IMG/VR virus record: IMGVR_UViG_2698536506_000006 | DNA from: a virus | Taxonomy: Duplodnaviria > Heunggongvirae > Uroviricota > Caudoviricetes | Direction: 5' to 3' (one strand) | Length of the DNA: 24,146 bases | Shown here: piece after piece, positions 1-21,370 of the stretch | Numbering within the stretch: the first letter of the stretch is position 1 | Layout: every line of letters begins with the position of its first letter | The notes under the pieces: generated by a model | Seen by the model: only the letters and a program-made list of their open reading frames with translations | Told to the model about the DNA's origin: nothing | Database searches by the model: none | Translations under genes and position numbers: made by a program

Positions 1-1032
1 TCAAAAACTTGCTATTGATGTTGGTAGTGTTGCCAGCGGATTAAACCGTAATGCAGTTTCCAGGTGATCCGGTGCCAGATGTGCGTAACGCATAGTCATT
101 TTTATATCGTGATGCCCTAGAATTTTTTGTAAGGCCAGGATATTTCCACCCGACATCATGAAGTGCGCCGCAAACGTATGGCGCAGAACGTGTGTCAGTT
201 GACCGCGAGGGAGCACGATAGACGTTTTTTCCATCACGGATAAAAATTGAAAATAGCAGTCTGTAAAGAAATTGAACCCATCAAGCGCCATGATCTCTTC
301 GTAAAGCTCTTTACTGATAGGGATGCTTCTGTTTTTCTTCCCCTTCGTTCTTACAAAGGTAATTCGGTATTTGGTCACCTGTGAGCGGGTAAGATTTACG
401 GCTTCTCGCCAGCGTGCGCCTGTGCTTAAGCATATTTTGACTACCAGAGCCAGAATTGGGTCCTGACGTTTGCAATCAGCCAGCAGTTCAACAATCTGCT
501 CATGGGTAAGCCATGCCATCTCTTTTTCTGCGATGGTGAATTTTCGCATGTTCTCCAGTGGGTTTGGATACGACCATTCGCCCAGGCGGGATAGTTCGCT
601 AAAAACACTACTTAGATAGCTTTGCTCCAGGTTAATGGTGACCGGGCTTGCTCCTTTCTTCCATTTCTCGCTGAAGTAGATCTCTCCTGTCAGGCGTTTA
701 TCTCGATAGTGGGCAAACATTTTAGAGGTGAGATCGGTTGCAAGGGGATTGCCCAGAGCGTCAACTATCAACAGCAATTTGTCATAGACATGCTGCCCAG
801 CTGTCAGAGATTTACCATGTAGTTTGAACCATAGCTCAACCACGTCTTTCAGTGTTCGACGATCCACTGATTCACCCAGCCAGGGCTTTGCTTCGGTTTC
901 TTCCATCGTGTGACGCTCAAAAGCCAGAGCTTCACCTTTGGTGGCGAATTGTTTACGCACACGACGCCCACTACGTCCGGCGGGGTAACATTCGCAAAGC
1001 CATTTTCCTGTGGTGAGTTTTCGTACTGCCAT
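1..1032 (-). CDS. int: Tyrosine integrase (P2/186 Int family)
   Basis: ORF ends with stop at 1-3. Start chosen at ATG 1032-1030 (MAVRKLTTGKW...), preceded by GGAGGG with about 8 nt spacing. C-terminal region carries tyrosine-recombinase-like motifs (HVLRHTFA...MMSGGNILALQKILGHHDIKMTMRYAHL). The ORF track extends the frame to 1110. Confidence 0.9.
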   Translation of the reverse strand: MAVRKLTTGKWLCECYPAGRSGRRVRKQFATKGEALAFERHTMEETEAKPWLGESVDRRTLKDVVELWFKLHGKSLTAGQHVYDKLLLIVDALGNPLATDLTSKMFAHYRDKRLTGEIYFSEKWKKGASPVTINLEQSYLSSVFSELSRLGEWSYPNPLENMRKFTIAEKEMAWLTHEQIVELLADCKRQDPILALVVKICLSTGARWREAVNLTRSQVTKYRITFVRTKGKKNRSIPISKELYEEIMALDGFNFFTDCYFQFLSVMEKTSIVLPRGQLTHVLRHTFAAHFMMSGGNILALQKILGHHDIKMTMRYAHLAPDHLETALRFNPLATLPTSIASF

Positions 1033-1218
1033 AAAAAATGCCCTCCAGTGGAGAGCATTTTTACTGTATGTATAACCAGTGTCAATGTATGAAATCCTGC
1101 GACCATACATCTCACTGAAGCCATAATGAAGTTGGCTATTTTTTGCTATGTGAGTATGTGACTTTTGCGGTTAGCCTGCGGCTCATTGTTATATTAGGCG
1201 CAGATATAAAAGCAAAAT

Positions 1219-1425: not shown

Positions 1426-1995
1426 TTACCTAACGTACTTAATTGTTAAACTTATAATTTTTCCAATTATTTTAACATCTTCTATCTTGCACTCGAAGGC
1501 TCTGTTTCCACCTTCAACGAAGATTCTTCCACCGGGTAAACGAGTAATGTCGCGGATTGTTATTTCGCCATCAATACTTATTACCCATTTACCATCACGT
1601 ATATCATCAAATTCTTTATCACAAATAAATTCAGAATTGTTATCTGTGATGACAAAAGGTTTTTTAAACGTAGAGGGTAGAAATCCCTTATCAAAAATAT
1701 AAAAACCGTCTTCACGCAAGGCACCATCAGATAATACATATTTAGCAACTTCCATAGTATTTGTATTACCTGAAGTTTGCTTTGAACCATGCCCGGTTGT
1801 GAGCCAATTAAGCGAGGTGCCTGTTTCAAGGGCGCACTGGATTACCCATTCTGCTGGGAATGAGTCACGCATGTAGCGTGTGGCGAGTGTACTTTTAGAG
1901 ATTCCTAAATGATCGCACAACGCCTGTCGAGTCTTGAATCCATAAGCTTCTACCATGCGCTCTATAGCGCCTCGTCCGCCTTTCTCCAAATTCAT
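1426..1995 (-). CDS. cI: CI immunity repressor (phage 186 CI type)
   Basis: About 190 aa. Shares the pattern I recall for 186 CI (EAYGF..., ...RY.R..., CALETG..NL.WL.TG.G). Sits between int and a divergent apl/cII operon. ATG at 1995 chosen; an in-frame GTG at 2001 is also possible. Confidence 0.8.
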   Translation of the reverse strand: MNLEKGGRGAIERMVEAYGFKTRQALCDHLGISKSTLATRYMRDSFPAEWVIQCALETGTSLNWLTTGHGSKQTSGNTNTMEVAKYVLSDGALREDGFYIFDKGFLPSTFKKPFVITDNNSEFICDKEFDDIRDGKWVISIDGEITIRDITRLPGGRIFVEGGNRAFECKIEDVKIIGKIISLTIKYVR

Positions 1996-2019
1996 GGTCA
2001 CTCCAAGTGAACTTTTATC

Positions 2020-2048
2020 TTGACGATTTCACTGTGCGATCGTATGTT
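2020..2048 (+). promoter_or_regulatory. Candidate sigma70 promoter (pR-like) for the apl-cII early operon
   Basis: TTGACG at 2020-2025, 17-nt spacer, TATGTT at 2043-2048. RBS ACGAGGA precedes the apl ATG at 2121. Lies in the cI/apl divergent switch region. Confidence 0.4.
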
Positions 2049-2120
2049 TATGGTGTTCACAAAATACAAACGATCCGTATTCGTCCTGATTAATCATCAT
2101 TAAACGAGGAATGTTGCATC

Positions 2121-4169: not shown

Positions 4170-5023
4170 GCACCATCCTGAAATGGGCGGGAAATAAAAC
4201 TGCCATAATGTCCGAACTGAAAAAACATCTTCCTGCTGGCCCGCGACTGGTTGAACCTTTCGCGGGTTCCTGTGCTGTGATGATGGAGACGGATTATCCC
4301 AGCTATCTGGTTGCGGATATTAATCCTGATTTAATCAACCTCTATAAAAAGGTTGCCGCTGATTGTGAATCGTTTATATCTCGCGCCAGAGTTTTATTTG
4401 AGATCGCAAACAGGGAGGTGGCTTATTACAACATAAGGCAGGAGTTTAATTACTCAACTGAAATTACTGATTTCATGAAAGCGGTATATTTCCTGTATCT
4501 CAATCGTCACGGTTACCGTGGTTTATGTCGCTATAACAAGAGCGGGCATTTCAACATTCCCTACGGTAATTATAAAAATCCGTATTTCCCTGAAAAAGAA
4601 ATTCGCGCATTTGCAGAAAAGGCCCAGCGAGCAACGTTTATCTGCGCCAGCTTTGATGAAACGCTGGCGATGTTGAAGGCGGGGGATGTGGTGTATTGCG
4701 ATCCGCCGTATGACGGTACGTTTTCCGGCTATCACACTGACGGCTTCACTGAAGATGACCAGTATCACCTGGCATCTGTTCTTGAACATCGGTCATCAGA
4801 AGGACATCCGGTCATTGTTTCTAACAGTGACACATCCCTGATCCGTTCGCTGTATCGCAATTTTACTCACCACTACATCAAGGCAAAACGCAGCATCGGT
4901 GTGGCAGCTGGCGAGGGTAAATCAGCAACAGAAATTATTGCTGTTTCCGGGCCGCGCTGCTGGGTGGGATTTGATTATTCGCGTGGCGTGGATAGTTCTG
5001 CCGTGTACGGAGTACGTGCATGA
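4166..5023 (+). CDS. dam: DNA adenine methyltransferase (Dam family, N6-adenine)
   Basis: Begins [11 protein letters not shown]. AdoMet-binding motif EPFAGSCAV and catalytic DPPY ([11 protein letters not shown]). GGAGGT RBS. Translationally coupled to the upstream and downstream genes. Confidence 0.9.
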
Positions 5024-7407
5024 GTCATGCCGATATGAACAACTGCTGCGGCTTTAACGAAGCTGCCGCATCGTTCTCATGGAACAGCCCGAAAAAGGCC
5101 ATTAACCCTTATCTGGACCCGGCGGAAGTTGCGCCGGTTTCTGCGCTTTCAAACCTGATCACTCTGTACGCTACTGATAACGAGCAGGAACAACTGCGCC
5201 GCGAGGCACTGAGTGATCAGGTCTGGGAGCGTTATTTCTTTAATGAATCCCGTGATCCTGTCCAACGCGAAATGGAGCAGGATAAGCTCATTAGCCGGGC
5301 AAAGATGGCGCATGAGCAGCAGCGTTTTAATCCAGACATGGTCATTCTGACTGACGTCAACGCCCAGCCTTCCCATATCAGCAAGCCGCTGATGCAACGT
5401 ATTGAATATTTCAGCAGCCTGGGCAGGCCAAAGGCTTATTCCCGCTATTTGCGTGAGACGATTAAGCCATGTCTGGAACGACTGGAGCATGTACGCGACA
5501 GCCAGCTATCTGCATCTTTTCGTTTTATGGCAAGCCATGAAGGGCTGGACGGTCTGCTGATCCTGCCTGAAATGAGTCAGGATCAGGTGAAACGCCTGTC
5601 TACCCTTGTCGCTGCGCATATGAGCATGTGTCTTGATGCCGCTTGTGGTGATTTGTACGCCTCCGATGATGTTAAGCCAGAAGAAATCCGCAAGACATGG
5701 GAAAAGGTGGCTGCAGAAACCCTGCGACTGGATGTCATACCGCCTGCGTTTGAGCAACTCCGCCGGAAAAGAAACCGCCGCAAACCTGTGCCTTATGAAC
5801 TCATTCCGGGTTCGCTGGCGCGTATGCTGTGCGCCGACTGGTGGTATCGGAAATTATGGAAGATGCGTTGCGAATGGCGGGAAGAGCAGTTGCGTGCTGT
5901 CTGCCTGGTCAGCAAAAAAGCATCTCCCTATGTCAGCTATGAAGCCGTGATGCATAAACGTGAGCAGCGCCGTAAGTCGCTGGAGTTTTTCCGTTCTCAT
6001 GAACTGGTGAACGAAGACGGCGACACGCTGAACATGGAGGATGTGGTAAACGCCAGCAGCAGCAACCCGGCGCATCGCCGCAACGAGATGATGGCCTGTG
6101 TTAAAGGCCTGGAGCTTATCGCGGAAATGCGTGGTGACTGCGCCGTTTTCTACACCATCACCTGTCCGTCACGTTTCCATTCCACGCTAAATAACGGCAG
6201 GCCAAACCCGACCTGGACCAACGCGACAGTAAGACAAAGCAGCGATTATCTGGTCGGCATGTTTGCTGCATTTCGTAAGGCTATGCACAAAGCCGGGTTG
6301 CGCTGGTATGGCGTGCGGGTGGCTGAGCCGCATCATGACGGCACAGTTCACTGGCACCTGTTGTGTTTCATGCGCAAAAAAGACCGCCGCGCCATTACTG
6401 CATTGTTGCGTAAGTTTGCCATCCGTGAAGACCGCGAGGAGCTGGGCAATAACACGGGGCCACGCTTTAAGTCTGAGCTGATAAACCCGCGCAAAGGAAC
6501 GCCGACAAGCTACATTGCGAAATATATCAGTAAGAATATTGACGGGCGTGGTCTGGCTGGCGAGATCAGTAAGGAAACGGGTAAATCCCTGCGTGATAAC
6601 GCTGAATACGTTAATGCCTGGGCGTCTCTGCATCGTGTTCAGCAATTCCGCTTCTTTGGCATTCCGGGGCGTCAGGCTTACCGTGAACTGCGATTGCTGG
6701 CTGGTCAGGCGGCAAGGCAACAGGGTGACAAAAAAGCAGGTGCGCCGGTACTGGATAACCCGCGCCTTGATGCCATCCTGGCTGCTGCTGATGCTGGTTG
6801 TTTTGCCTCCTACATCATGAAGCAGGGCGGCGTACTGGTTCCCCGCAAATATCACCTCATCAGAACCGCTTATGAAATCAACGAAGAGCCGACCGCCTAT
6901 GGCGATCACGGTATTCGTATTTATGGCATCTGGTCACCCATTGCAGAGGGCAAGATCTGCACTCATGCAGTGAAGTGGAAAATGGTTCGTAAGGCCGTTG
7001 ACGTTCAGGAGGCGGCAGCCGACCAGGGCGCTTGCGCCCCTTGGACTCGTGGCAATAACTGTCCCCTTGTTGAAATTTTGAACCAATCAGGGGGCGAATC
7101 ACCCGAACCCAAAGAGCCGGAGGCGCTGCCGGATCTCCATAATCTGAGCGCGAGGGAACGGCGGGAGCTGACGGCCCGGCTGAGGCTGGTAAAACCGAAG
7201 CGGCGAAAAGGGTACAAACAGGAAATTAACGAACAGCAGCGTCAGCAGCTCGACGCTGAGTTGAGGTCCAGAGGGTTTGAAGCGAGTGAAACAGAGGTGG
7301 ATCTGCTTTTGCGTGGCGGCAGCATTCCGTCCGGGGCCGGGCTGCGTATTTTCTACCGCAACCAGCGCCTGCAGGAAGATGATAAGTGGCGGCAGTGGTA
7401 TTCATGA
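5020..7407 (+). CDS. A: Replication initiation endonuclease gpA (rolling-circle, HUH family)
   Basis: 795 aa. HUH-like motif [10 protein letters not shown] and active-site tyrosine region YIAKYISK. Position after the early regulators as in P2/186. Confidence 0.9.
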
Positions 7408-7497
7408 ATAGCCACAAGGGCACGCAATTACTGCAACGAGTCAGAAGTATCTCATTGAAAGCAAAAAAGCATTTTACATCCGGAAACTTCTTCTATA

Positions 7498-7528
7498 CTG
7501 TATATATAAACAGTGGATATATATACAG
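7498..7528. promoter_or_regulatory. Inverted repeat, candidate operator or promoter element upstream of ORF 7562
   Basis: CTGTATATATA (7498-7508) and its reverse complement TATATATACAG (7518-7528) separated by 9 nt, about 35 bp upstream of an AGGAGGGA RBS. Confidence 0.35.
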
Positions 7529-7561
7529 TTTATTTATCCGGCAGTATCGATAGGAGGGAAG

Positions 7562-7750
7562 ATGCAGGACTATTTTCTGGAGTCGTTGAAGCTCCAGCGC
7601 ATTGATTTTTTTATCAAGCTTGTAGCGGCGAGTGAGTGTGATGACGAAGAAAAGCAGCTGGCGATTCAGTGGGTTTCTGAGTTAACGGATGAGCTGATGG
7701 CGAAGATTCGTGCTCATGAATACAACCGCTCAATGGATATTCCCGGTTAG
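7562..7750 (+). CDS. Hypothetical protein, 62 aa
   Basis: Strong RBS AGGAGGGA. Acidic, helical-looking small protein. Lies between gpA and cos. Confidence 0.5.
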   Translation: MQDYFLESLKLQRIDFFIKLVAASECDDEEKQLAIQWVSELTDELMAKIRAHEYNRSMDIPG

Positions 7751-7828
7751 CAGCAGGAACGTTGCTGGCGCAAGAACTGGCTTCTTACGTCAGCAAGGTT
7801 GAACAACGAGTCCAGCGAGGCGTTAGCC

Positions 7829-8095
7829 ATGGCTAAATCCAACAGCAAATTCCAGACCGTCTATGAGGGGCAGGTGCTTGAGCGTTTCGAGCCCGGTGGA
7901 TGGGTCTTGTTTCAACGCCGTTCTGAATATGGCGGTAAGTTCTGGATGGGACGAACCATGGACGATGTATTTTTGTTTGGTCCCGATCATCCGGTATCTG
8001 GAGGTGAGGCTATGAGCTTCATCATTGATTACGAGGGTGAGCAATTCAGACGGTCTTTACCCGTCGAATATACCCCACAGATACCGCTTTTCTGA
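7829..8095 (+). CDS. Hypothetical protein, about 88 aa
   Basis: ATG at 7829 with GAGG upstream; the frame is open from 7799. Followed by a terminator-like hairpin. Confidence 0.5.
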   Translation: MAKSNSKFQTVYEGQVLERFEPGGWVLFQRRSEYGGKFWMGRTMDDVFLFGPDHPVSGGEAMSFIIDYEGEQFRRSLPVEYTPQIPLF

Positions 8096-8160
8096 GAACC
8101 GGCTGAGTGCATGTCTATGCTGCATGAGATCGCATGATCGTTTGAGGATCGTTTTCGCTG

Positions 8161-8190
8161 AAGCCCGCCAGAACTGGCGGGCTTTTGGTT
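8161..8190 (+). terminator. Rho-independent terminator-like hairpin
   Basis: AAGCCCGCC / GGCGGGCTT 9-bp stem with 6-nt loop, followed by TTTTGGTT. Confidence 0.55.
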
Positions 8191-8231
8191 ATGTCATGCA
8201 GGTGCATGAAAACCGCTACATAAAGCGGGCA

Positions 8232-8250
8232 GGCGTGGCGGGGATACGAG
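8232..8250. other. Candidate cos site (cohesive-end sequence of P2/186 type)
   Basis: GGCGTGGCGGGGATACGAG followed by CGCGCGC. Closely resembles the P2/186 cohesive ends as I recall them (GGCG[A/T]GGCGGGGAAAGCA...). Lies between the A-side and Q-side of the genome as expected. Confidence 0.5.
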
Positions 8251-8297
8251 CGCGCGCCCGGCTTGCTATTTGTTCGTTGCAACATTAGTATTCCTAT

Positions 8298-8450
8298 GCT
8301 CTTTAGCGTTAGGGAACCATTGCGTTCTAGCCGGGCGATAAGCCAGGCTCTAATTTATTGCTCAGTTTAGGGTTGCGAAAGCGACGAATTCGTCGCTTTC
8401 GCTGTCTTTAGTGAAGAGCTCGGCCCGCGCAAGCGGGCCTCACAAGCGGA
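8298..8450 (+). ncRNA. Candidate retron msr/msd non-coding RNA (boundaries approximate)
   Basis: Non-coding stretch immediately upstream of a retron-type RT. Contains a perfect 28-nt palindrome (8375-8402) and a GC hairpin with GCAA loop (8422-8439). Possible promoter TTGCTA (8263-8268), 17-nt spacer, TAGTAT (8286-8291). a1/a2 repeats were not resolved by eye. Confidence 0.35.
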
Positions 8451-9392
8451 ATGTTTATGGAAATTTTATCGGCTGTTAGCAAAGAACTTGGAGTAAACGT
8501 TAACGAGCTGAGGCGGTTATCGAGTGTTGCGCCTAAAAAATATAAAGTCTACACAATTCCTAAACGACAAAGTGGATTCAGGCTTATTGCTCAACCAACG
8601 AGTGAGATAAAGCGAATTCAGCGTGAGGTTGTGAAAATTTTGGCTTCCAAGCTCATCGTGCACGATGCAGCGAAAGCTTATAAAGTTTCTATAGGAATTA
8701 AGGACAATGCCAAAATCCATATGGCAAACTCCTATCTTTTAAAAATGGATTTTCAGAATTTCTTCAATAAAATTAAACCGGCTCTTTTATTTGATAAACT
8801 TCGCTCTCAAGGGGTTGTTTTGTCAGGTGAGGATAAGGAGTTTTTAGAAGGGATTCTTTTCTGGAAACCAGGAAAAAAAAGAAGTATCACTCTCGTGTTG
8901 AGCGTTGGGGCGCCATCCTCACCTTTTGTTAGTAATTTTGTAATGTATGATTTTGATAATTATATAAACAATTGGTGCTCTGTTAGGAATATTTCATATT
9001 CAAGGTATGCTGATGATATTACATTTTCTACAGATGAGAAGAATATACTTTTTGAGGTCCCGAAAGTAGTAAGGTTTGCATTATCATTATGTGCTAAAGG
9101 TATATCTTTAAATGAATCTAAAACTGTATTCACGTCTAAAGCTCATAATAGACATGTGACAGGTGTGACATTAACAGTTGATGGGGAGCTTTCGCTCGGT
9201 AGGCAAAAGAAGAGAATGATTTCTTCTCTGCTGCATAAATATACACTAGGCTTACTGGCTAAAGAGGATGTTATAAGCCTTAAGGGCTTTGTTGGACATG
9301 CTTTATATATCGAGCCTAAATTTATTGCTAGAATGAAAATTAAATATGGGAAAGAAGTAATACATGCGCTTTTTTCTGAGGAGGGGATGTGA
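8451..9392 (+). CDS. Retron-type reverse transcriptase
   Basis: RT motifs: GAPSSPFVSN (motif B-like), RYADDITFS (YADD catalytic motif) and the retron-characteristic VTG motif (NRHVTGVTLTVDG). AT-rich. Alternative start at ATG 8457. Confidence 0.85.
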   Translation: MFMEILSAVSKELGVNVNELRRLSSVAPKKYKVYTIPKRQSGFRLIAQPTSEIKRIQREVVKILASKLIVHDAAKAYKVSIGIKDNAKIHMANSYLLKMDFQNFFNKIKPALLFDKLRSQGVVLSGEDKEFLEGILFWKPGKKRSITLVLSVGAPSSPFVSNFVMYDFDNYINNWCSVRNISYSRYADDITFSTDEKNILFEVPKVVRFALSLCAKGISLNESKTVFTSKAHNRHVTGVTLTVDGELSLGRQKKRMISSLLHKYTLGLLAKEDVISLKGFVGHALYIEPKFIARMKIKYGKEVIHALFSEEGM

Positions 9393-11044
9393 ACTCAAAG
9401 TATACTAAATCACCAAATGACATTCGTACATTATTGCAGTCTTATGTAAATAAAACTGAAGATGGTTTAGAATTCAGTAAAGAGAACATTCCTGAAGAGG
9501 TATCTTCGTTATATAAGGAAATTGAAGATGCACCATTTCTTATAAATAAAGTCGCCATCTCAGACTATAAAAGAGTCAGGGATCTTTTTGTTTCGATCGA
9601 CAAAAAACTAACAGTGTTTGTTGGTGATAATGGTTACGGTAAAACCACCATTCTTGAAGCATTATTTATTGCTTTAAGTTGGTTTAGAGCAAATGTTCAA
9701 AAAGAAGATAAAAGCGGTTTTCATATAAAAGATGGTGATATTAACAATCATAATGATGTCAATTATGCTGCAATAACTGCGCAGTTTAAACTTAAAAAAA
9801 TAACGTCAAATATTTTAGTTACACGTGTTAAAGATGGAGTATCACAAAAAAGAAATAATGAGTTGCTTTCTATAAAAGAGATGGCGTCATTCTTTCGTGT
9901 TGTGAATTCATATTATGAAGATGTAAGCCTTCCGGTTCTTGCATATTACTCTGTATCAAGATCTTCAAATGGTGCAGGCATAGATAATAAAAGAAATGTT
10001 AATAATTCTGTGCGTCGATGGACTAAGCTTGATGCTTATGAAGATATAGAGTTTGATCGCCGTGACTTCGGTGAGTTTTTAAATTGGTTCATATTTGTTA
10101 ATAATAAGGCATTGTCTGAGGAGTCCTTGATACCAGAAAAACAAAGAGATCAACTTGTTATTGATATCTCAAAGCTTAAGGTATCTTTGGAGGTTTTGAA
10201 ATCTTTCAGTGATGTTGATAGAAGAACATTAATAGATATAGAAACACAAATTGCTAATAAAGAGTTGATTCTTAATACGTTACCGTCTACACCAAATGGT
10301 TTAAGTCGTTCAAAAGATATTGTTGCTAATGTTAAAAGGGCAATAATTAATTTCCTTCCTGAAATTAGCTCTGTTGAACTTCAATATACTGAAAATGAAG
10401 TTCGTTTAGTTTTAGCAAAAGATGATTTACTATTAGATGCCCAGCAACTCTCTCAAGGGGAGAAAACTATACTTACATTAGTGGGGGATTTAACAAGACG
10501 CTTGGTGTTGCTGAATCCTAAGTTAAATAATCCACTTCAAGGGAAAGGTATAGTATTAATTGATGAAGTTGATCTTCATTTGCACCCAAGCTGGCAGCAA
10601 AACATTATTGAGAAATTGCAGCATACATTTCCTAACGTACAATTCATAATTACCACTCATAGCCCTCAAATTGTATCGACAGTTCCAAGTAAATGCTTGC
10701 GCATCCTTGAGGAAATAAAAAACCCTTCGACAGGCATGAAGGAATTACGTGTGCTTTTACCATCATCTCAAACAAAAGGTACTAAGAATTCGTACGCTTT
10801 GCTTTATGGGATGAAAACAGATCCTGTACCTAATGTAAAAGAAGTCGCATGGCTGAGCACTTATAAGAAATTTATTGAAAACAGGCAGCAGGATTCGGAG
10901 GAAGCCATAATGATAAGGAAAAAGTTAGACAAGCATTATGGAATTGATCACCCATTATTACTTGAGTGTGATGGTATAATTCGTGTATTAAAGCTAAAAG
11001 ACAAAGTGCGGGGTGAGTCTGGCAATAAGGAATCTAAACAATGA
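9389..11044 (+). CDS. Retron-associated ATPase (PtuA/Septu-like, ABC/OLD-type)
   Basis: Walker A GDNGYGKTT, Walker B VLIDEVDLHLH, H-loop-like ITTHSPQ. GTG start overlapping the RT stop (ATGTGA), preceded by GAGGAGGGG. Confidence 0.8.
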   Translation: MNSKYTKSPNDIRTLLQSYVNKTEDGLEFSKENIPEEVSSLYKEIEDAPFLINKVAISDYKRVRDLFVSIDKKLTVFVGDNGYGKTTILEALFIALSWFRANVQKEDKSGFHIKDGDINNHNDVNYAAITAQFKLKKITSNILVTRVKDGVSQKRNNELLSIKEMASFFRVVNSYYEDVSLPVLAYYSVSRSSNGAGIDNKRNVNNSVRRWTKLDAYEDIEFDRRDFGEFLNWFIFVNNKALSEESLIPEKQRDQLVIDISKLKVSLEVLKSFSDVDRRTLIDIETQIANKELILNTLPSTPNGLSRSKDIVANVKRAIINFLPEISSVELQYTENEVRLVLAKDDLLLDAQQLSQGEKTILTLVGDLTRRLVLLNPKLNNPLQGKGIVLIDEVDLHLHPSWQQNIIEKLQHTFPNVQFIITTHSPQIVSTVPSKCLRILEEIKNPSTGMKELRVLLPSSQTKGTKNSYALLYGMKTDPVPNVKEVAWLSTYKKFIENRQQDSEEAIMIRKKLDKHYGIDHPLLLECDGIIRVLKLKDKVRGESGNKESKQ

Positions 11045-11709
11045 AATTCCTTGCTAGAAATCCCATTGGTCCAGGTGTTTTAGCCGAGTTTGACTACAAT
11101 ATTCATGACTGGAATGCTTTTAAACGGCGACATAAACAATTAGTCTGGGTCGGTTTAGTTGAAATGCAAGGGAAGAGATGTGCGTATTGTGAGCGGAAAA
11201 TAGATATTCACAATAGTGATGATAAGCATATCGAGCATTTTTTGCGTAGAAGCCAGCATAGGCATTTAACATTTGAATGGTCAAACTTGTTCGGCTCTTG
11301 TGCTGAAAATAATCACTGCGGTTTTTACAAAGATGAACAGAGCTATCAGGAGCAAGACCTAATCAAGGCCGATAATGATGACCCCACACATTTTTTCCAT
11401 TTCGCTATTAATGGAAATATGGATATTCGTCCGGGGTTATCGCGAAACGATGAGCGAAGAGCTGAGGTTACTATAAGGGTTTTTAACCTGAATGGTGAAA
11501 AGGGCGGCGTGAAAACTGAGCGCATCAATGCAATATCAGAAACATGGTCATTGATAGAGAGATTTGTTTCTACAGCTGAAGAGTTCATCGAAGAGGGACT
11601 TTATGATGATAGTGTCCGTAACGAACTTCGAGACGAGTATTATAAAGAAATAGACCCCAGACCATTCTCTACTGCGTTGCGTGATGTTTTTGATACGATG
11701 CTTCCTTAA
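11041..11709 (+). CDS. Retron-associated HNH endonuclease (PtuB-like)
   Basis: HNH-type motif CAYCE...DDKHIEHF...N...SCAENNHC. Start overlaps the ATPase stop (ATGA). Confidence 0.8.
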   Translation: MKFLARNPIGPGVLAEFDYNIHDWNAFKRRHKQLVWVGLVEMQGKRCAYCERKIDIHNSDDKHIEHFLRRSQHRHLTFEWSNLFGSCAENNHCGFYKDEQSYQEQDLIKADNDDPTHFFHFAINGNMDIRPGLSRNDERRAEVTIRVFNLNGEKGGVKTERINAISETWSLIERFVSTAEEFIEEGLYDDSVRNELRDEYYKEIDPRPFSTALRDVFDTMLP

Positions 11710-11741
11710 ATTAAAGAGTCTCATTTGAGACTCTTTAATTT
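11708..11741. terminator. Bidirectional terminator between the convergent retron operon and portal gene
   Basis: Near-perfect inverted repeat AAATTAAAGAGTCTCA / TGAGACTCTTTAATTT with a 2-nt loop, between the HNH stop and the portal stop. Confidence 0.6.
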
Positions 11742-12766
11742 TACATCGAATATTCTTTAAAATTTATTATATCGTCATTTAACCATCGGTTGATTTCACA
11801 GATTCTTTGCTGTAAGGGGATTACTTCATTTCTTACAAAAACCTTACTAGCCTTTTCCACATCCCCAAACCCGCCAACATTACTCGGCATAATCCCCATC
11901 ATCTGAGGCGGCACACGATGCGCCGCCATCATGTCATCCCGGCTCACGTTCTTGATATTCAAAAACTCATCCTTCGCCGCGACTTCTGACAACGGGATGA
12001 TCTGAAGCCCGTCCTTTTTGCCGTTAGGCGAGTACATAAACAGGTTGCGGAAGTTACCTGGGCCTTTGGCGCTTTTCATCGCGTTGCGGAGGTTGTTCAC
12101 ATCCTCCTGGTTTTGTGCGGCGTCGGTCATGTACATGATGAAGCCTGCATGACTGCCGTTAATGTAATACTTCCGGCGGAACAGCGTGGCGGACTCGTTG
12201 AGCAGGGCTGACGGAATGGCAGAAAGATAACCGGGCAGGCCGTAGATCTCCTGGTTGATGTCCGGTTCCATCAGATGAAAAATGCTGCCTTTCGTGAACT
12301 GATACGGCTGGGTTGTCATACCGTATTGCACAAACCAGTAGGTATCCAGGTCTAACCCGCGTCGTGTGTATTTTGCCAGGGCAGGTTCAAAGGCGATAAT
12401 TTCACCGAAGCGGTTCGTGCGTTTCTCCAGGTAGGCGTTACCAAATACCAGATAGTCCTGCACAAAACGTGAAAAAGCCTGCTGGCTGAGCAGCGGGTGA
12501 GGGATGTAGGTACTGGTCAGAATGTTGCATTTCACCGCAATTGGTGAACTGTGATGCACGGCGGCGCGGAAGGTGCGCGCCAGTCCGTCAAAGCTTACTG
12601 GCGGCTCATACCAGCGATCTGTCTGTACGCATTCCACATAGTCCAGTAATTCGCGGCGGTCCAGAACAGGAACGGGATCACCGAAGCTGAATGCTTCGGC
12701 TGAAGTTTGTTTTTTATACTGGATCTGATTCGTCGCCGCAGCGCGGTTCTTCTTACTCTTTCCCAT
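11741..12766 (-). CDS. Q: Portal protein (P2 gpQ-like)
   Basis: About 341 aa, the size and position of P2 Q. ATG at 12766-12764 overlaps the terminase stop (ATGA arrangement on the minus strand). Confidence 0.9.
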   Translation of the reverse strand: MGKSKKNRAAATNQIQYKKQTSAEAFSFGDPVPVLDRRELLDYVECVQTDRWYEPPVSFDGLARTFRAAVHHSSPIAVKCNILTSTYIPHPLLSQQAFSRFVQDYLVFGNAYLEKRTNRFGEIIAFEPALAKYTRRGLDLDTYWFVQYGMTTQPYQFTKGSIFHLMEPDINQEIYGLPGYLSAIPSALLNESATLFRRKYYINGSHAGFIMYMTDAAQNQEDVNNLRNAMKSAKGPGNFRNLFMYSPNGKKDGLQIIPLSEVAAKDEFLNIKNVSRDDMMAAHRVPPQMMGIMPSNVGGFGDVEKASKVFVRNEVIPLQQRICEINRWLNDDIINFKEYSM

Positions 12767-14532
12767 CAAAAAATCTCCACAATATTGCTGGTATTGGCGG
12801 ACTCGCCCTGCAGCGGTTCGTTAAACAGTGCGTGCATTGTTGCCCAGGCCAGATCGGCATGGCTGGCTTCTTCGCTGCGGCTGGCTTCATAGGTCGGGCG
12901 GTTGCCGCTGGCGGTGGTGGCACGGCGGATTGCCATGAATGACTGCGCAATGTCGGTGTGTCCGGCGTCAAACTCCAGACGGCGGTGGCTGATAATGTCG
13001 TAGGCCTTGAGTACCAGGGCGTTTTTAACATTGGGGTTATAGACAAACTCCCGGACGGCAGGAAAAAACGCTTTCACGTTCTCATAAACCCCGTGACCGA
13101 CGCCTGTCGAGTCGATGCCGATATAGGTCACGTTGTACTGCTCGGTCAGTTTTTTGATTGCATCAGCTTGGGCGCGGAAGTCCATCCCGCGCCACTGGTG
13201 ACGCTCAAGAATGCGAAACTTACCGCCTGGCACGGCTGGCGGTGCCACCACCACGCATCCGGCGCTGTCGCCGTTCTGCGTACCTTTTGCCGGGTCATAA
13301 CCGATCCACACCTCGCGCCAGCCAAACGGGCGCAGGGCCAGTGCATGAAAGTCGGTCCAGACTTCCCAACTGTCCACCATGCATGCCTGCAGCTCGCTGA
13401 GCGGGAACACGGACGCGAGATCGTCCACAAACTCGCACATCAGCAGGTTCTGGTATTCGTCCGGGCTGTACTCCATGCGCAACTGGTCGAGGTCGAACAG
13501 GTTACAGCCGCCGCGCACCGCATCTTCCACGGTGACTATCTGGCGGTATTGCCCGTCTGCGCACAGCAGGCCGGGGGCCAAGTTGCTGTGGGACAGGTCG
13601 ATGTCCACCTTGTCGGCTTTGTTGCGTCCACGGTTGAACAGCGCACCGGACCAGAATGGATAAGCACTGTGGGTCAGACTGGATGGCGTGGAAAAATAGG
13701 TCTGCCGCCATTTTTTGTGAATAGCCATACCGGAAGCCACTTTGCGCAGCTCCTGGAATTTCGGGATCCAGAAATATTCATCCAGATACAGGTTGCCGTG
13801 GTAACTCTGGGCCGTGCGGGCATTGGTGCCGAGGAAGTAAAGCGTGGCCCCGTTAGGAAGCACCATCGGATCGCCTTTCAGCTCCACCTCCACTTCTTTG
13901 GCAAAGTCGATGATGTACTGTTTAAAGACGTGGGCCTGAGCCTTGCTGGCAGAAAGGAAAATCTGGTTACGCCCGGTCAGCAGGGCGTCAATCAGGGCTT
14001 CACGGGCAAAGTAAAAGGTCGCGCCGATCTGGCGTGACTTCAGCAGGTTGCGGATGCGGTTGGTTTTTCCGGCTTCCCACCAGTGGCGCTGGTAGTTGAA
14101 CATGGAGGAATGGAAGATTTCTTCCAGCTTCTCAATCTGTTCATCGGTGAAAACATTCTTTTCCGGCTGACGGCGCGGGCCTTTGTTGCGGTTGGCGACG
14201 TTTGGGTTTAAGTCGGCTTCGTTGCCGCCATTGTTAAACTTGCCGATCCGCGCGTGGCGTTCCGACTGGCGCGCCAGCAGGTCAATCTCTTTGAAATCTT
14301 TCCCTTCTTTGTGCTCCTTCATAATGAGCTGGCAGTAGCGTGCGGCGGTGGTGAGCTGCATCTGATCCAGCGGCCCATAGTCACCCCACTTGTCGCGTTT
14401 TTTCCAGCTGTGAACGGTTGCAACTTTCTCGCCCAGCATTTCAGCAATGCGGGCTACGCGGTATCCCTGAAAGTACAGCAGCATGGCCTGCCGACGGGGA
14501 TCGAGATCTGCGGGTGTCAGTGTGGTGTTCAT
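12766..14532 (-). CDS. P: Terminase large (ATPase) subunit (P2 gpP-like)
   Basis: 588 aa, divergent from the scaffold gene as in P2 (P/O divergent late promoters). Confidence 0.9.
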   Translation of the reverse strand: MNTTLTPADLDPRRQAMLLYFQGYRVARIAEMLGEKVATVHSWKKRDKWGDYGPLDQMQLTTAARYCQLIMKEHKEGKDFKEIDLLARQSERHARIGKFNNGGNEADLNPNVANRNKGPRRQPEKNVFTDEQIEKLEEIFHSSMFNYQRHWWEAGKTNRIRNLLKSRQIGATFYFAREALIDALLTGRNQIFLSASKAQAHVFKQYIIDFAKEVEVELKGDPMVLPNGATLYFLGTNARTAQSYHGNLYLDEYFWIPKFQELRKVASGMAIHKKWRQTYFSTPSSLTHSAYPFWSGALFNRGRNKADKVDIDLSHSNLAPGLLCADGQYRQIVTVEDAVRGGCNLFDLDQLRMEYSPDEYQNLLMCEFVDDLASVFPLSELQACMVDSWEVWTDFHALALRPFGWREVWIGYDPAKGTQNGDSAGCVVVAPPAVPGGKFRILERHQWRGMDFRAQADAIKKLTEQYNVTYIGIDSTGVGHGVYENVKAFFPAVREFVYNPNVKNALVLKAYDIISHRRLEFDAGHTDIAQSFMAIRRATTASGNRPTYEASRSEEASHADLAWATMHALFNEPLQGESANTSNIVEIF

Positions 14533-14578
14533 GGCACAAACCTACAGCCTTGAATGAAGGCTTTCCCCGCCTGCGGTT

Positions 14579-14596
14579 TGTGTGGTTGTCGGTACA
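14579..14596. promoter_or_regulatory. Candidate Ogr/B activator binding site (TGT-N12-ACA) in the P/O divergent late promoter region
   Basis: TGT at 14579-14581, 12-nt spacer, ACA at 14594-14596, in the 142-bp intergenic region between the P and O starts. Matches the late-promoter activator site consensus of P2-like phages. Confidence 0.4.
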
Positions 14597-14674
14597 AATA
14601 CCGCGCATTGTTTCACTGCCCCCATCACCGCAACCATAAGGCCCCAGTAAGTTTTTTCTAACGGAGCACGGCTC

Positions 14675-15508
14675 ATGACAGTGAAAGCAAAGCGTTTTCG
14701 CATCGGGGTGGAAGGTGCCACCACCGACGGACGCGAAATCCAGCGTGAATGGCTGGAACAGATGGCAGCCAGCTACAACCCGGCGGTGTATACCGCGCTG
14801 ATTAACCTTGAGCACATCAAGTCTTATCTGCCGGACAGCACCTTTAACCGCTACGGCAAGGTGACGGCGCTGTTTGCTGAAGAAATCACGGAAGGTCCGC
14901 TGGCAGGCAAGATGGCATTGTATGCCGACGTTGAGCCAACGGAGTCCCTGGTGGAACTGGTGAAAAAAGGCCAGAAATTATTCACCTCTATGGAAGTCAG
15001 CCCTAAGTTCGCTGATACGGGCAAAGCCTACCTGGTTGGACTGGCCGCCACTGATGATCCCGCCAGTCTGGGTACGGAAATGCTGACATTCAGCGCCAGT
15101 GCAGCCCATAACCCGCTGGCAAACCGCAAGCAGAATCCCGCCAATCTTTTTACCGCTGCAGAGGAAACAGTGATCGAACTGGAAGAAGTCCAGGACGAAA
15201 AACCATCCCTGTTTGCCCGTGTCACGGCGCTGTTCACCAAAAAAGAGCAGTCCGATGATGCCCGGTTCTCTGATGTGCATAAGGCCGTGGAGCTGGTCGC
15301 CACTGAGCAGCAAAACCTGAGTGCGCGCACCGAAAAATCCCTGTCTGAACAGGAAGAACGCCTGTCTGAGCTGGAGACAGCCCTGCAGACACAGTTGACC
15401 GCCTTTAACGAACTGGTGGACAAGCTGAGCCATGAAGACAGCCGCCAGGACTACCGCCAGCGTGCAACAGGCGGTAACGCCCCCGCTGACACTCTGACCA
15501 ATTGCTGA
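14675..15508 (+). CDS. O: Capsid scaffolding protein (P2 gpO-like)
   Basis: 277 aa, directly upstream of the major capsid gene; size and order as in P2. Confidence 0.85.
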   Translation: MTVKAKRFRIGVEGATTDGREIQREWLEQMAASYNPAVYTALINLEHIKSYLPDSTFNRYGKVTALFAEEITEGPLAGKMALYADVEPTESLVELVKKGQKLFTSMEVSPKFADTGKAYLVGLAATDDPASLGTEMLTFSASAAHNPLANRKQNPANLFTAAEETVIELEEVQDEKPSLFARVTALFTKKEQSDDARFSDVHKAVELVATEQQNLSARTEKSLSEQEERLSELETALQTQLTAFNELVDKLSHEDSRQDYRQRATGGNAPADTLTNC

Positions 15509-15524
15509 TGGAGCACAAAACCTG

Positions 15525-16583
15525 ATGAAGAAGAATACCCGCTTTGCTTTTAACGCTTACCTGCAGCAGCTGGCGCGTCTGAACGGTGTGGCAGTTGAAG
15601 AACTGTCCAGCAAGTTCACCGTGGAGCCGTCTGTACAGCAGACGCTGGAAGACCAGATCCAGCAGTCCGCCGCTTTCCTGACGCTGATTAACGTCACGCC
15701 AGTGACTGAGCAGTCCGGTCAGCTGCTGGGGTTGGGTGTTGGTAGCACCATTGCCGGAACCACTGACACCACCGCGAAAGAGCGTGAACCTGTCGATCCT
15801 ACGCTGATGGTCGATGTGGAATACAAATGCGAGCATACCAACTTTGACACGGTGCTGACCTACGCGAAGCTGGACCTGTGGGCGAAATTTCAGGATTTCC
15901 AGGTGCGTATCCGTGACGCCATCGTGAAACGTCAGGCACTGGACCGCATCATGATCGGCTTTAACGGCGTGAAGCGTGCGAAAACCTCCAACCGTAGTGA
16001 AAACCCGCTGCTGCAGGATGTGAACAAAGGCTGGCTGCAGAAAATCCGTGAGGATGCACCGGATCACGTCATGGGCAGCACCACCACAGGCGGTGAAACC
16101 ACACCGGGCGCGGTGAAAGTCGGTAAAGGTGGCGAATATGCCAACCTGGACGCCGTGGTGATGGATGCCGTCAATGAGCTTATCGACGTGGTCTACCAGG
16201 ACGATGACGATCTGGTGGTGATTTGCGGTCGTGAACTGTTGTCTGACAAGTATTTCCCACTGGTCAACAAAGAGCAGGAAAACAGTGAAAAACTCGCTGC
16301 CGATATGATCATCAGTCAGAAACGCATGGGTGGCCTGCAGGCCGTGCGTGCGCCGTTCTTCCCGCCGAATGCACTGCTGATCACCCGGCTGGATAACTTG
16401 TCCATCTACTGGCAGGAAGACACCCGCCGCCGTTCAGTTATCAACAACCCGAAACGTGACCGGATTGAAAACTTTGAATCCGTTAATGAAGCCTATGTGG
16501 TTGAGGACTACCGCTGCGCCGCACTGGTGGAAAACATCCAGATTGGTGATTTCAGCGCCGCCGCAGCCGAAACCGGAGCGTAA
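15525..16583 (+). CDS. N: Major capsid protein (P2 gpN-like)
   Basis: 352 aa. N-terminal pattern (..TRF.FNAYL...A.LNG......KFTVEPSV.QTL) matches P2 gpN as recalled. Confidence 0.9.
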   Translation: MKKNTRFAFNAYLQQLARLNGVAVEELSSKFTVEPSVQQTLEDQIQQSAAFLTLINVTPVTEQSGQLLGLGVGSTIAGTTDTTAKEREPVDPTLMVDVEYKCEHTNFDTVLTYAKLDLWAKFQDFQVRIRDAIVKRQALDRIMIGFNGVKRAKTSNRSENPLLQDVNKGWLQKIREDAPDHVMGSTTTGGETTPGAVKVGKGGEYANLDAVVMDAVNELIDVVYQDDDDLVVICGRELLSDKYFPLVNKEQENSEKLAADMIISQKRMGGLQAVRAPFFPPNALLITRLDNLSIYWQEDTRRRSVINNPKRDRIENFESVNEAYVVEDYRCAALVENIQIGDFSAAAAETGA

Positions 16584-16586
16584 TCC

Positions 16587-19403: not shown

Positions 19404-19885
19404 TGATGGTGCTGGGATTGTACGTGTTTATGCTGCGCACCGTGCCGTATCAGGAACTGCAGTATCAACGCAGCTGGCGACATGCGGCTAACAACCGGGT
19501 AAATCGACGTCCGTCCACGCAGTTTCTGGGACCGGACAACGACATGCTGACACTTTCCGGTGTTCTTATGCCGGAGATAACAGGCGGCAGGCTGTCGTTG
19601 CTGGCACTGGAACAGATGGCAGAACAGGGGAAAGCATGGCCTCTGATTGAAGGCAGCGGCACGATTTACGGCATGTATGTGATTGAGGGACTGAATCAGA
19701 CTAAAACGGAGTTTTTCCGCGACGGTATGCCGCGCCGGATTGAGTTCACCCTGTCGCTCAAACGGGTGGATGAATCCCTGTCCGATATGTTCGGTGATCT
19801 CAGTTCGCAGCTGAATAATCTGCAGGACACGGCAACATCTGCATTAAGCGATATCAGTAAAACGGTGGGAGGGCTGCTGTCGTGA
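19400..19885 (+). CDS. U: Tail protein gpU-like
   Basis: 161 aa immediately after the tape-measure region with ATGA overlap; size and order as in P2 (T-U-D). Confidence 0.8.
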   Translation: MMMVLGLYVFMLRTVPYQELQYQRSWRHAANNRVNRRPSTQFLGPDNDMLTLSGVLMPEITGGRLSLLALEQMAEQGKAWPLIEGSGTIYGMYVIEGLNQTKTEFFRDGMPRRIEFTLSLKRVDESLSDMFGDLSSQLNNLQDTATSALSDISKTVGGLLS

Positions 19886-20982
19886 ATTTCAGCTCTGAAC
19901 TGCTTAACAAAGGCAACAAAACTCCCGCATTCAGCATCAGTATTGAGGGCAGGGATATCACCACTGTGCTGGACAACCGCCTGATGGGGCTTACGCTGAC
20001 GGACAATCGGGGCTTTGAAGCGGACCAGCTTGATCTGGAGCTGGACGACGCCGATGGAAAAATCGTGCTGCCGCGCCGTGGTGCGGTCATTACGCTGGCG
20101 CTGGGCTGGAAGGGGCAGCCGCTTTTCCCGAAAGGGGCATTCACGGTGGACGAGATTGAACACACTGGCGCACCGGACCGCCTGACTATCCGGGCGCGAA
20201 GTGCTGATTTTCGGGAAACGCTGAATACCCGCCGTGAAAAATCGTGGCACAAGACCACCGTCGGGGAAGTGGTGAAGGAAATAGCCTCGCGGCACAAGCT
20301 GAAGATGGCACTGGGTAAAGACCTGTCGGATAAGCTCGTAGAGCATATAGACCAGACTAATGAGAGTGACGGCAGTTTTCTGATGCGGCTGGCGCGACAG
20401 TACGGTGCCATCGCGTCGGTGAAAAATGGCAATCTGTTATTCATCCGGCAGGGGCAGGGCAAAAGCGCCACTGGTAAACCACTGCCGGTGATCACTATCA
20501 CACGCAAGGACGGCGACAGTCACCGCTTTACCCTGGCAGATCGCGGAGCCTACACGGGAGTAATTGCCAGCTGGTTGCATACCCGCGAACCCGCGAAGAA
20601 AGAAAGCACCACGGTGAAGCGTAAGCGCAGGACTAAGAAGCAGAAGAAAGAGCCGGAAGCGAAGCAGGGCGATTACCTGGTGGGTACGGATGAAAACGTG
20701 CTGGTACTTAATCGCACTTATGCCAACCGGAGCAACGCCGAACGAGCGGCGAAAATGCAGTGGGAACGCCTGCAACGCGGCGTTGCGTCATTCTCGTTAC
20801 AACTGGCGGAAGGGCGGGCAGATCTCTACACGGAAATGCCTGTGAAAGTCAGTGGCTTTAAACAGCCGATAGATGATGCGGAATGGACCATTACCACCCT
20901 GACGCATTCCGTTAGCCCGGATAACGGTTTTACGACCAGTCTTGAACTTGAAGTGAGGATTGATGATTTCGAAATGGAATGA
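19882..20982 (+). CDS. D: Tail protein gpD-like
   Basis: 366 aa following U with overlapping stop/start; order as in P2. Confidence 0.8.
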   Translation: MNFSSELLNKGNKTPAFSISIEGRDITTVLDNRLMGLTLTDNRGFEADQLDLELDDADGKIVLPRRGAVITLALGWKGQPLFPKGAFTVDEIEHTGAPDRLTIRARSADFRETLNTRREKSWHKTTVGEVVKEIASRHKLKMALGKDLSDKLVEHIDQTNESDGSFLMRLARQYGAIASVKNGNLLFIRQGQGKSATGKPLPVITITRKDGDSHRFTLADRGAYTGVIASWLHTREPAKKESTTVKRKRRTKKQKKEPEAKQGDYLVGTDENVLVLNRTYANRSNAERAAKMQWERLQRGVASFSLQLAEGRADLYTEMPVKVSGFKQPIDDAEWTITTLTHSVSPDNGFTTSLELEVRIDDFEME

Positions 20983-21072
20983 TTCTTCGCAATGGAGAAC
21001 TTTTAAGTTTGCAAAATGGAATAATGCGGTATCATTATTGTGAATTTAGCAAAAATGGGGAGAACTCGAAAA

Positions 21073-21291: not shown

Positions 21292-21370
21292 CGCTGCCGC
21301 CATTTTGTCGCCATCGTTAAAAAACAGTGCTTCTAACATCATGATTTTAAACAGCTTAAATTTCAGGCAA

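Follow-up and report, generated by a model that had tools for sequence, protein, structure and literature searches.

A predicted type I-A retron noncoding RNA gene with a shortened msd hairpin in a defective P2-like prophage

Does the structured DNA just upstream of a retron reverse transcriptase (RT) gene encode the RNA from which the retron makes its msDNA (multicopy single-stranded DNA), and does a perfect palindrome found there belong to the template? The locus that raises this question lies in IMG/VR virus record IMGVR_UViG_2698536506_000006, a 24,146-nt stretch of DNA that we refer to, at its full length, as the window. A preliminary description of the window, made from the letters alone, had proposed that the interval before the RT gene is a structured leader in which a 28-nt palindrome and a GC-rich hairpin are candidate msr or msd elements. 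We conclude that 8262-8441 very probably comprises a promoter, the msr-msd noncoding RNA (ncRNA) gene of a type I-A retron with a truncated msd hairpin, and a trailing hairpin. The retron is an uncharacterised member of the type I-A retrons, and the only unusual aspect of it is its private, truncated msd allele.

The view that the leader is an msr-msd gene is borne out by an Rfam match above the gathering score and by covariation of the terminal repeats a1 and a2. Rfam family RF00170 (msr) matches 8298-8366 on the plus strand over model positions 1-69, with 55.1 bits against a gathering threshold of 52 (E = 1e-8). For comparison we used two E. coli chromosomes that also carry this cassette (L001 and L002), the cassettes that occupy the same phage slot in FORC82 (L013) and N10 (L014), and 24 distant loci (RT identity 42-55%) from Gammaproteobacteria and from one Marinifilaceae (Bacteroidota) metagenome-assembled genome. 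L013 is the FORC82 retron, as its RT matches PDB 9n69_E over the full length with 698 bits. Twenty sources were searched with RF00170 (18 of the 24 distant loci together with L013 and L014), and 18 of them have a match upstream of the RT gene; at the gathering threshold Rfam missed the msr of FORC82 and of N10, both of which were placed by alignment. The structural counts that follow are based on 20 aligned ncRNAs, or lineages, all of which share a common plan: an 8-nt a1, a G, stem-loop 1 (SL1), stem-loop 2 (SL2), a AATTTATTG motif, a long hairpin, TAG and a2. Across these lineages the base of the msd hairpin is GCGAAAG/CTTTCGC, and the 8-nt a2 is complementary to a1.

The inverted repeats and the branching guanosine, which the first reading had left unplaced, can now be assigned (Table 1). 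In the window a1 and a2 pair at 8 of 8 positions, with one G-U, and over the 20 lineages their helix is 98.1% paired while pair 1 varies among GC, GU, AU and UA and pair 3 among UA, CG and UG. The length of the repeats is that of the 8-nt IRa1/IRa2 of Ec78 (PMC12819146). The G directly after a1 is invariant (20/20), and in the window it is the counterpart of A7/G8 of the FORC82 ncRNA, in which G8 primes and A7 precedes it (PMC12475279), and of the UUAGC motif of the Rfam msr. An SL1 stem forms at the same place in 20 of 21 folded sequences, with differing sequences (GGACGA/TCGTCT, GGACTA/TAGTCT); the exception is L022, where the minimum-energy fold puts the stem elsewhere. The SL2 helix found by RNAalifold (alignment columns 51-58/64-71) is 100% paired and includes a UA to CG compensatory change. 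Run unguided on the 20 ncRNAs, RNAalifold predicted a1/a2, SL2 and the msd base. In that structure 96.6% of the cells are paired, as against 40-47% when the partners are slid by 1-3 columns, and its covariation score is 0.299, as against at most 0.107 when slid, a value reached in 0 of 500 shuffles. The single-sequence RNA fold of 8298-8441 (-67.4 kcal/mol, z = -4.9) agrees with the comparative structure: it recovers a1/a2, both msr stem-loops, the msd hairpin and, apart from these, the GC hairpin. The near-invariant CTAATTTATTG motif between SL2 and msd is probably a clamp or termination region. For this E. coli retron lineage, the limits of a1, the priming G, the stem-loops, the template and a2 within the ncRNA are now placed.

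The palindrome, GCGAAAGCGACGAA/TTCGTCGCTTTCGC, consists of two 14-nt arms that are 100% complementary, and none of 200 dinucleotide-preserving shuffles of 8050-8500 contained a 14-nt perfect inverted repeat. In the alignment with L001 and L002 the ncRNA is identical base for base save for a 48-nt gap in the window. There the sister loci carry a 76-nt hairpin, GCGAAAGCGACGAATTC-[CGCCTTCGCATCCTATGGCTGTTGCCATAGTTTACGAAGGCGGAATTC]-GTCGCTTTCGC, whose perfect stem of 25 bp is topped by a small internal loop and then by a tip of 6 bp. By this comparison, the palindrome is the base of the msd stem after loss of one GAATTC and of the 42 nt between its two copies. The proposal that the palindrome is the msd hairpin is thus right in that it forms the msd stem between msr and a2, and falls short in that 48 nt of the 76-nt hairpin are missing; the palindrome is a derived state and not a design feature. 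GAATTC is self-complementary and therefore present in both arms, where it makes a 6-nt direct repeat across the hairpin, a textbook setting for slipped-strand deletion. Most likely, the 48 nt were lost when replication slipped from one GAATTC copy to the other, and cutting by EcoRI followed by religation would yield the same product.

The truncated msd allele is, in our judgement, likely to be a recent slippage mutation, and two other explanations have to be set beside this one. Fourteen independent assemblies with an identical RT all carry the 76-nt hairpin, and a fifteenth contig (L044; GCA_032324525.1, DAPZNQ010000012.1) starts at its position 1 inside the full-length msd tip (GGCTGTTGCCATAG...); evidently, assemblers break at the full-length hairpin. 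Any estimate of how frequent the allele is would be confined to these 15 assemblies. Among viral contigs, a search for the deletion junction elsewhere led to a single further record, IMGVR_UViG_2671180674_000014; it is 100% identical to window positions 5131-19139 and thus comes from the same source. A search of metagenome contigs for the junction gave 0 hits, a second metagenome scan with the shared left arm was empty, and the full-length tip is absent from the viral contigs. The flanks are 99.9% identical to those of strain AREA_497. With a private junction between near-identical flanks and next to near-identical proteins, the deletion is therefore either very recent or an artefact. An artefact, in which a polymerase jumped during library amplification or sequencing, or the consensus is in error, and the strain itself carries the 76-nt hairpin, would account for an allele known from one source against 14 full-length assemblies, and for a contig that ends exactly at the hairpin tip. 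The endpoints, a direct repeat of 6 nt on either side of a perfect 25-bp stem, are a classic substrate for polymerase slippage in vitro as well, and RT, PtuA and PtuB show no compensatory changes. We nevertheless think an artefact unlikely: k-mers across the junction (ACGAATTCGTC and similar) are absent from the full-length sequence, and a de Bruijn assembler cannot invent them; the deletion would have to be present in most reads; other assemblies, by methods that are not known, recovered the full hairpin; and slippage in vivo at the GAATTC repeat is equally easy. That the palindrome has nothing to do with msd and is a cis element in its own right, for example the operator of a dimeric DNA-binding protein, a terminator or a phage packaging signal, is most improbable. 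A perfect 28-nt palindrome with an EcoRI site might suggest one, and the scan tool lists it as terminator-like (12 pairs, then TGTCTTTAGT). However, it lies between msr and a2, where every relative has its msd hairpin; its GCGAAAG/CTTTCGC base is conserved and covaries across the family; it is the deletion product of a longer hairpin; and it is absent from retron-free prophages, which share the backbone only to ~8260. The possibility of a packaging element, raised in the preliminary description itself, can be judged from the same prophages. Backbone homology to ~1,270 other E. coli prophages ends at ~8257-8260, and in strain S3 (L040 5312-7530) three hypothetical proteins (369, 144 and 221 aa) fill the slot that is held here by the retron. 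Therefore the retron, including the palindrome, is cargo and not a packaging element. A sub-threshold Rfam match of CC3552 to the palindrome was dismissed as a generic hairpin match.

Table 1. Features of the window (positions from its first letter)
Feature	Position	Strand	Basis or remark
Predicted sigma-70 promoter: -35 TTGCTA 8262-8267, 17-nt spacer, -10 TAGTAT 8285-8290	8262-8290	+	
a1 inverted repeat GCTCTTTA, msr 5' end	8298-8305	+	pairs with a2
Priming (branching) guanosine, predicted	8306	+	conservation
msr SL1, GGAAC/GTTCT, 6-nt loop	8313-8328	+	folding
msr SL2, AGCC-GGC ... GCC-GGCT	8329-8349	+	Rfam alignment, RNAalifold
Conserved single-stranded motif CTAATTTATTG	8350-8360	+	near-invariant in alignment
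msd (template)	8361-8411	+	boundary rule
msd hairpin remnant: 28-nt perfect palindrome, junction at central GAATTC (8386-8391)	8375-8402	+	
a2 inverted repeat TGAAGAGC, ncRNA core 3' end	8412-8419	+	pairs with a1
Trailing GC hairpin, 7 G-C pairs, GCAA loop	8422-8439	+	outside msr/msd
Retron reverse transcriptase, 311 aa	8457-9392	+	PADLOC RT_I-A, Pfam RVT_1
PtuA-like SMC/AAA ATPase effector	9389-11044	+	PADLOC PtuA 2.7e-181, ATPase_I-A 1.8e-155
PtuB-like HNH nuclease effector	11041-11709	+	PADLOC PtuB 6.9e-114, HNH_I-A 2.5e-55
Integrase	1-1110	-	
CII-like regulator			
Dam-type methylase			
Replication protein A	5020-7407		
Portal	11741-12769	-	
Large terminase	12766-14532	-	
Asp-Al_Ex permease, host gene	21527-23212	-	follows prophage

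The deletion should shorten the msDNA relative to that of the sister loci. Our boundary rule sets one end of the template at the base 5' of a2 and the other, further upstream, at the base 3' of TTATTG. Applied to the V. cholerae ATCC 14035 locus (L035), which we take to be Vc95, the rule reproduces the 95-nt msDNA. For FORC82 it predicts 96 nt, and ~90 nt were measured (PMC12475279). The published figures for Ec78 (144-nt ncRNA, 8-nt repeats, 78-nt msDNA and RSLb end at nt 48; PMC12819146, PMC12804668) fit the rule as well. The predicted msDNA of the window is the reverse complement of the template and has ~51 nt, CTAAAGACAGCGAAAGCGACGAATTCGTCGCTTTCGCAACCCTAAACTGAG, whereas 99 nt are predicted for the full-length sister and 73-105 nt for the relatives. 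Folded as DNA, the 52-nt reverse complement of 8360-8411 has a 12-bp stem with an AATT loop (-15.9 kcal/mol), and the sister msDNA has a stem of ~31 bp (-43.3 kcal/mol). The msd fold contains 17 pairs in the window, 12 of them in the main stem, as against 23-39 in the relatives. As a separate observation, the msd tips of nine distant loci (L032, L030, L021, L036, L029, L026, L020, L015 and L016) contain a recurring motif, CTCGTTCCTC, or close variants of it, which is absent from the P2-borne E. coli group (window lineage, FORC82 and N10). In the study of FORC82 the tip is described as highly variable (PMC12475279).

The GC hairpin (GGCCCGC-GCAA-GCGGGCC) had also been put forward as an msr or msd element. 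It starts 2 nt past a2 and folds independently (-17.2 kcal/mol); therefore it is neither msr nor msd, and it lies outside the ncRNA core. The GC hairpin is beyond chance. Of 20 related loci, 19 have a stable hairpin in the spacer between a2 and the RT gene, with energies of -12 to -28 kcal/mol. In 15 of the 20, a stem of at least 5 pairs with a loop of 3-8 nt and at least 5 T in 8 nt (our terminator rule) stands directly after a2 and before the RT ribosome-binding site, as against 2.2% of random windows of the same length from the same loci. No sequence 3' of a2 is common to the window lineage, FORC82 and N10, the E. coli cassettes, although each of these three has a strong hairpin there. The GC hairpin of the window, which stands where relatives have their terminator-like hairpin, precedes TCACAAGC and thus a stretch of 8 nt with 1 T; it has the G+C-rich stem of an intrinsic terminator without the U tract, and neither the terminator scan nor our rule called it. 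Most likely, it marks or protects the ncRNA's 3' end, or weakly attenuates read-through into the RT gene. Two other matches were rejected: a CRISPR repeat (RF01356, CRISPR-DR28) at the GC hairpin, with 24.7 bits against 35 (E = 0.12), in single copy on the minus strand and with no array, and a sub-threshold Rfam match of rnk_pseudo to the upstream backbone terminator, a generic hairpin match.

At the other end of the ncRNA we predict a sigma-70 promoter, because of its positional conservation. In 17 of the 20 loci, although the surrounding sequence has diverged, a1 is preceded at a distance of 6-8 nt (mostly 6) by a TTGnnn-17-TAnnnT pair; in the three exceptions the best-scoring pair is differently spaced or weaker. 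A promoter scan of 8050-8500 at a threshold of 9/12 consensus matches returned nothing. The position of the pair predicts that transcription starts at a1 itself, which in the window would be at ~8297-8298. The ncRNA thus looks like a self-contained unit, in which a promoter abuts a1 and usually a terminator-like hairpin abuts a2, with RT and PtuAB expressed by read-through. Such an arrangement bears on the balance between the ncRNA and the RT and effectors, and on how these retrons are cloned for defence studies or genome editing. Upstream of the promoter, in conserved phage backbone just before the retron cassette, we also noticed an 11-bp G+C-rich hairpin (8161-8184) followed by TTTTGGTT. 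To the eye it looks like the terminator of the preceding 88-aa open reading frame (ORF), and as such would shield the retron promoter from phage transcription; it is missing from the terminators listed by the scan tool, probably as its maximal stem leaves a 2-nt loop.

A terminator-like hairpin after a2 in the relatives implies attenuation, or control of read-through, of the RT and effector genes, and the GC hairpin of the window could itself be a transcriptional attenuator. Partial termination would then give a high ratio of ncRNA to RT and effectors, as is presumed for the T-tract hairpins of the relatives. The stem with a T tract directly after a2 in 15 of 20 relatives points this way, as does the conservation of the hairpin's position and not of its sequence. 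In FORC82 the hairpin and TTTGGTTTT are followed directly by the RT ribosome-binding site; a second promoter would not fit in between, and expression of the RT therefore depends on read-through. Against this, the hairpin of the window fails the terminator rule, N10 also lacks a T tract, and a hairpin without a U tract is more plausibly a block to 3' exonucleases or a processing signal. In addition, the RT transcript is cleaved from the msr-msd according to a review (PMC6868368), and our literature search found no experimental test of such hairpins for any relative. Searching the literature for terminators or attenuators in the interval from msd to RT likewise returned nothing relevant, and the arrangement cannot be claimed as unreported. 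We regard attenuation in the window as possible but doubtful. It is far less probable that the GC hairpin and a 9-bp inverted repeat, CGCCCGGCT (8255-8263) and AGCCGGGCG (8329-8337), belong inside the ncRNA as an extended a1/a2 or as an additional msr stem. Complementarity does exist, at 9 of 9 positions between the two arms of this repeat and at 8 of 9 between 8258-8266 and 8429-8437. However, 8255-8266 is upstream of where transcription is predicted to start and runs into the -35 box (8255-8263 by 2 nt), and 8255-8263 straddles the end of the conserved backbone, since homology to retron-free prophages reaches ~8257-8260. The other arm, 8329-8337, makes up the 5' half of SL2 and has its pairing partner within that stem-loop in all 20 lineages. 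Neither complementarity is present in the FORC82 and N10 alignment, and a 9-nt inverted repeat occurs in 32% of the 200 shuffles. A near-repeat that had also been listed (8149-8160 and 8393-8404, 11 of 12 identical; given from 8150 in the preliminary description) fares no better. Its first copy is backbone common to retron-free prophages, its second copy coincides with the msd stem's conserved 3' base, and 16% of shuffles contain a 12-nt direct repeat with at most one mismatch. Thus all four features named at the outset are present in the DNA where they had been placed, and on the grounds of chance, position and lack of conservation we rejected the two small repeats as a1/a2-like elements.

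The proteins place the retron in type I-A (retron-Septu in the classification of Mestre et al.). The RT matches PADLOC RT_I-A at 3.4e-131 over residues 3-310 of 313, as well as Pfam RVT_1. Its best solved relative is 9n69_E, from FORC82 (376.5 bits), and the Ec78 and Ec83 RTs score 279-286 bits. The RT more likely starts at ATG 8457 than at the in-frame ATG 8451 implied by the earlier reading, because 8457 is the RefSeq start in the sister loci and makes the N-terminus collinear with PDB 9n69_E; a GGA lies 6 nt upstream of it. Public gene calls are split between 311 aa (~100 contigs) and 313 aa (38 contigs). The RT sequence is found in RefSeq on ~100 contigs, mostly of E. coli, with cluster members in Pluralibacter and Cedecea, and its public annotation is only "retron St85 family". 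The RT, PtuA and PtuB ORFs overlap by 4 nt. Each protein differs from the sister loci by 0-1 residues, is identical to at least one sister and has no private substitutions; PtuA is intact and identical to that of strain M37H, and PtuB is identical to that of both sister loci. A retron-clade RT, PtuA and PtuB directly downstream, and an upstream ncRNA with a1/a2 and a priming G are all found here, as type I-A membership requires. The long msd stem of the type (at least 20 bp; msDNA of 73-105 nt in relatives) is lacking in this allele and present in the sister alleles (~31 bp and 99 nt, predicted). The locus is best described as a type I-A member by descent, whose present allele appears defective in msd length. 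The retron is not Ec78 or Ec83 itself, as their RTs match less well than that of FORC82, and the RefSeq name of PtuB, "retron Ec78...", is generic.

By sequence comparison the FORC82 retron is the closest characterised relative, and Ec78, Ec83 and Vc95 are more distant. The FORC82 retron (PDB 9n69/9n6b/9n6c; PMC12475279), like that of the window, has its genes in the same operon order in a P2-like slot between the replication region and the portal gene, and its RT is ~56-62% identical. Its ncRNA can be aligned throughout: a1 and G (ATGCTCTTTAG), SL1, SL2, TTATTG, GCGAAAG/CTTTCGC and a2, with a hairpin after a2. The two differ in the msd, with a stem of ~33 bp and an msDNA of ~90-96 nt in FORC82 and 12-14 bp and ~51 nt (predicted) in the window, and in the trailing hairpin, which has a T tract only in FORC82. 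Retron-Vch1 (Vc95, presumably our L035) shares the ncRNA plan and a terminator-like hairpin after a2, whereas its RT is 45% identical and its genomic context differs. Retron-Eco7 (Ec78) and Retron-Eco4 (Ec83) share with the window the combination of RT, PtuA and PtuB and the 8-nt IRa1/IRa2. Their msDNA hairpin inserts into the PtuA assembly and acts as an antitoxin with RT-msr (PMC12819146, PMC12804668, PMC11555353), and their msDNA is debranched or RNA-free (PMC12819146, PMC6868368), in line with the remark on RNA-less msDNA in the preliminary description. Their RTs are more distant from that of the window than the FORC82 RT is, and Ec78 makes a 78-nt msDNA from a 144-nt ncRNA. The tRNA targets differ, with tRNA-Tyr for Ec78 and tRNA-Ser for FORC82.

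From these family members, Ec78, Ec83 and FORC82 (PMC12475279, PMC12804668, PMC11555353), we infer how the retron might work. The RT would hold SL1 and SL2, and the a1/a2 duplex would set the 2'-OH of G8306 against template base G8411. Synthesis of cDNA would proceed from G8411 to ~C8361, with the template removed by RNase H. The msDNA hairpin would then thread two PtuA dimers and, together with RT-msr, keep the PtuB HNH nuclease inactive. If phage flap nucleases or exonucleases destroyed the msDNA, the freed PtuAB would cut tRNA and the infection would be aborted.

What would a short hairpin do to such a system? Neutralising PtuAB requires both msr-msd and RT (PMC11555353). In a series of Ec78 stems of 22, 16, 10, 6, 5 and 0 bp on plasmids, colonies fell progressively as the stem was shortened (PMC12804668). 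On over-expression a 16-bp stem was mildly toxic and stems of 10 bp or less cost more than 10-fold in colony-forming units (PMC12804668, Fig. 5f-g); lengthening of the stem was likewise harmful (PMC12804668). The allele of the window is without ~19 bp of the shaft and without the tip. Its msDNA is probably too short to span both PtuA dimers. We would expect loading of the distal PtuA dimer to be impaired and the system to be hypomorphic or leaky and partly auto-active. The engineered Ec78 truncations (PMC12804668) resemble the allele of the window in that the distal msd stem is gone and the base, a1/a2 and proteins are intact; they differ in being carried on plasmids, whereas the allele of the window has 12-14 bp and is in single copy in a prophage.

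Several points weigh against our reading of this locus and its truncation. The effect of the truncation is extrapolated from experiments in which Ec78 was over-expressed, and truncation of the loop in FORC82 was harmless (PMC12475279). PtuA and PtuB are intact and have no private substitutions, which would be unexpected if the allele were strongly toxic; intact, unmutated effector genes therefore argue against strong toxicity at native, single-copy expression. The deletion comes from a single assembly, and one other assembly breaks at the hairpin. The promoter has 8 of 12 consensus matches, below the 9/12 cut-off of the scan tool, and where transcription starts, where the msDNA ends and whether it is debranched are predictions.

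Should the truncated allele be genuine, nature has made an equivalent of the toxic stem truncations engineered in Ec78, and the amount of msDNA that a natively expressed type I-A retron requires could be learned from it. That the allele is both real and working, so that a 12-bp, ~51-nt msDNA holds PtuAB and senses phage, seems to us improbable. Were it true, the msDNA stem would be an evolvable ruler for the number of PtuA dimers loaded or for the ease of firing, and populations would tune it by slippage at repeats inside the hairpin. In a more speculative variant, the deletion might have been written back to the chromosome by a slipped msDNA that annealed at its own msd locus.

The window is a defective P2-like prophage that carries the type I-A retron as cargo, between the replication region and the portal gene. 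A search of a phage collection returned relatives of the backbone only and no relative of the retron cassette. A 938-aa ORF (16587-19403, plus strand) combines a small-terminase domain (aa 35-163) with a phage lysozyme domain (aa 170-278). Positions 17696-21300 match only the last ~4.4 kb of 33.5-kb P2-like phages, so ~12 kb of lysis and tail genes are missing. The slot of the retron is a variable cargo hotspot in P2-like prophages, and the cargo of strain S3 could be another defence system.

Three sister loci (L001, L004 and L011) have other deletions, for example truncated portal genes, and the retron is kept in all of them, which suggests that defence cargo is retained while the prophages decay. 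Among the distant loci, four have tRNA genes ~280-1,460 nt 5' of the retron ncRNA (L023 1640-1721, L026 1821-1893, L028 1972-2044 and L029 852-924), which suggests tRNA-associated islands. In a further distant locus, L030, a match to TwoAYGGAY RNA (1957-2085, minus strand) lies upstream of the retron.

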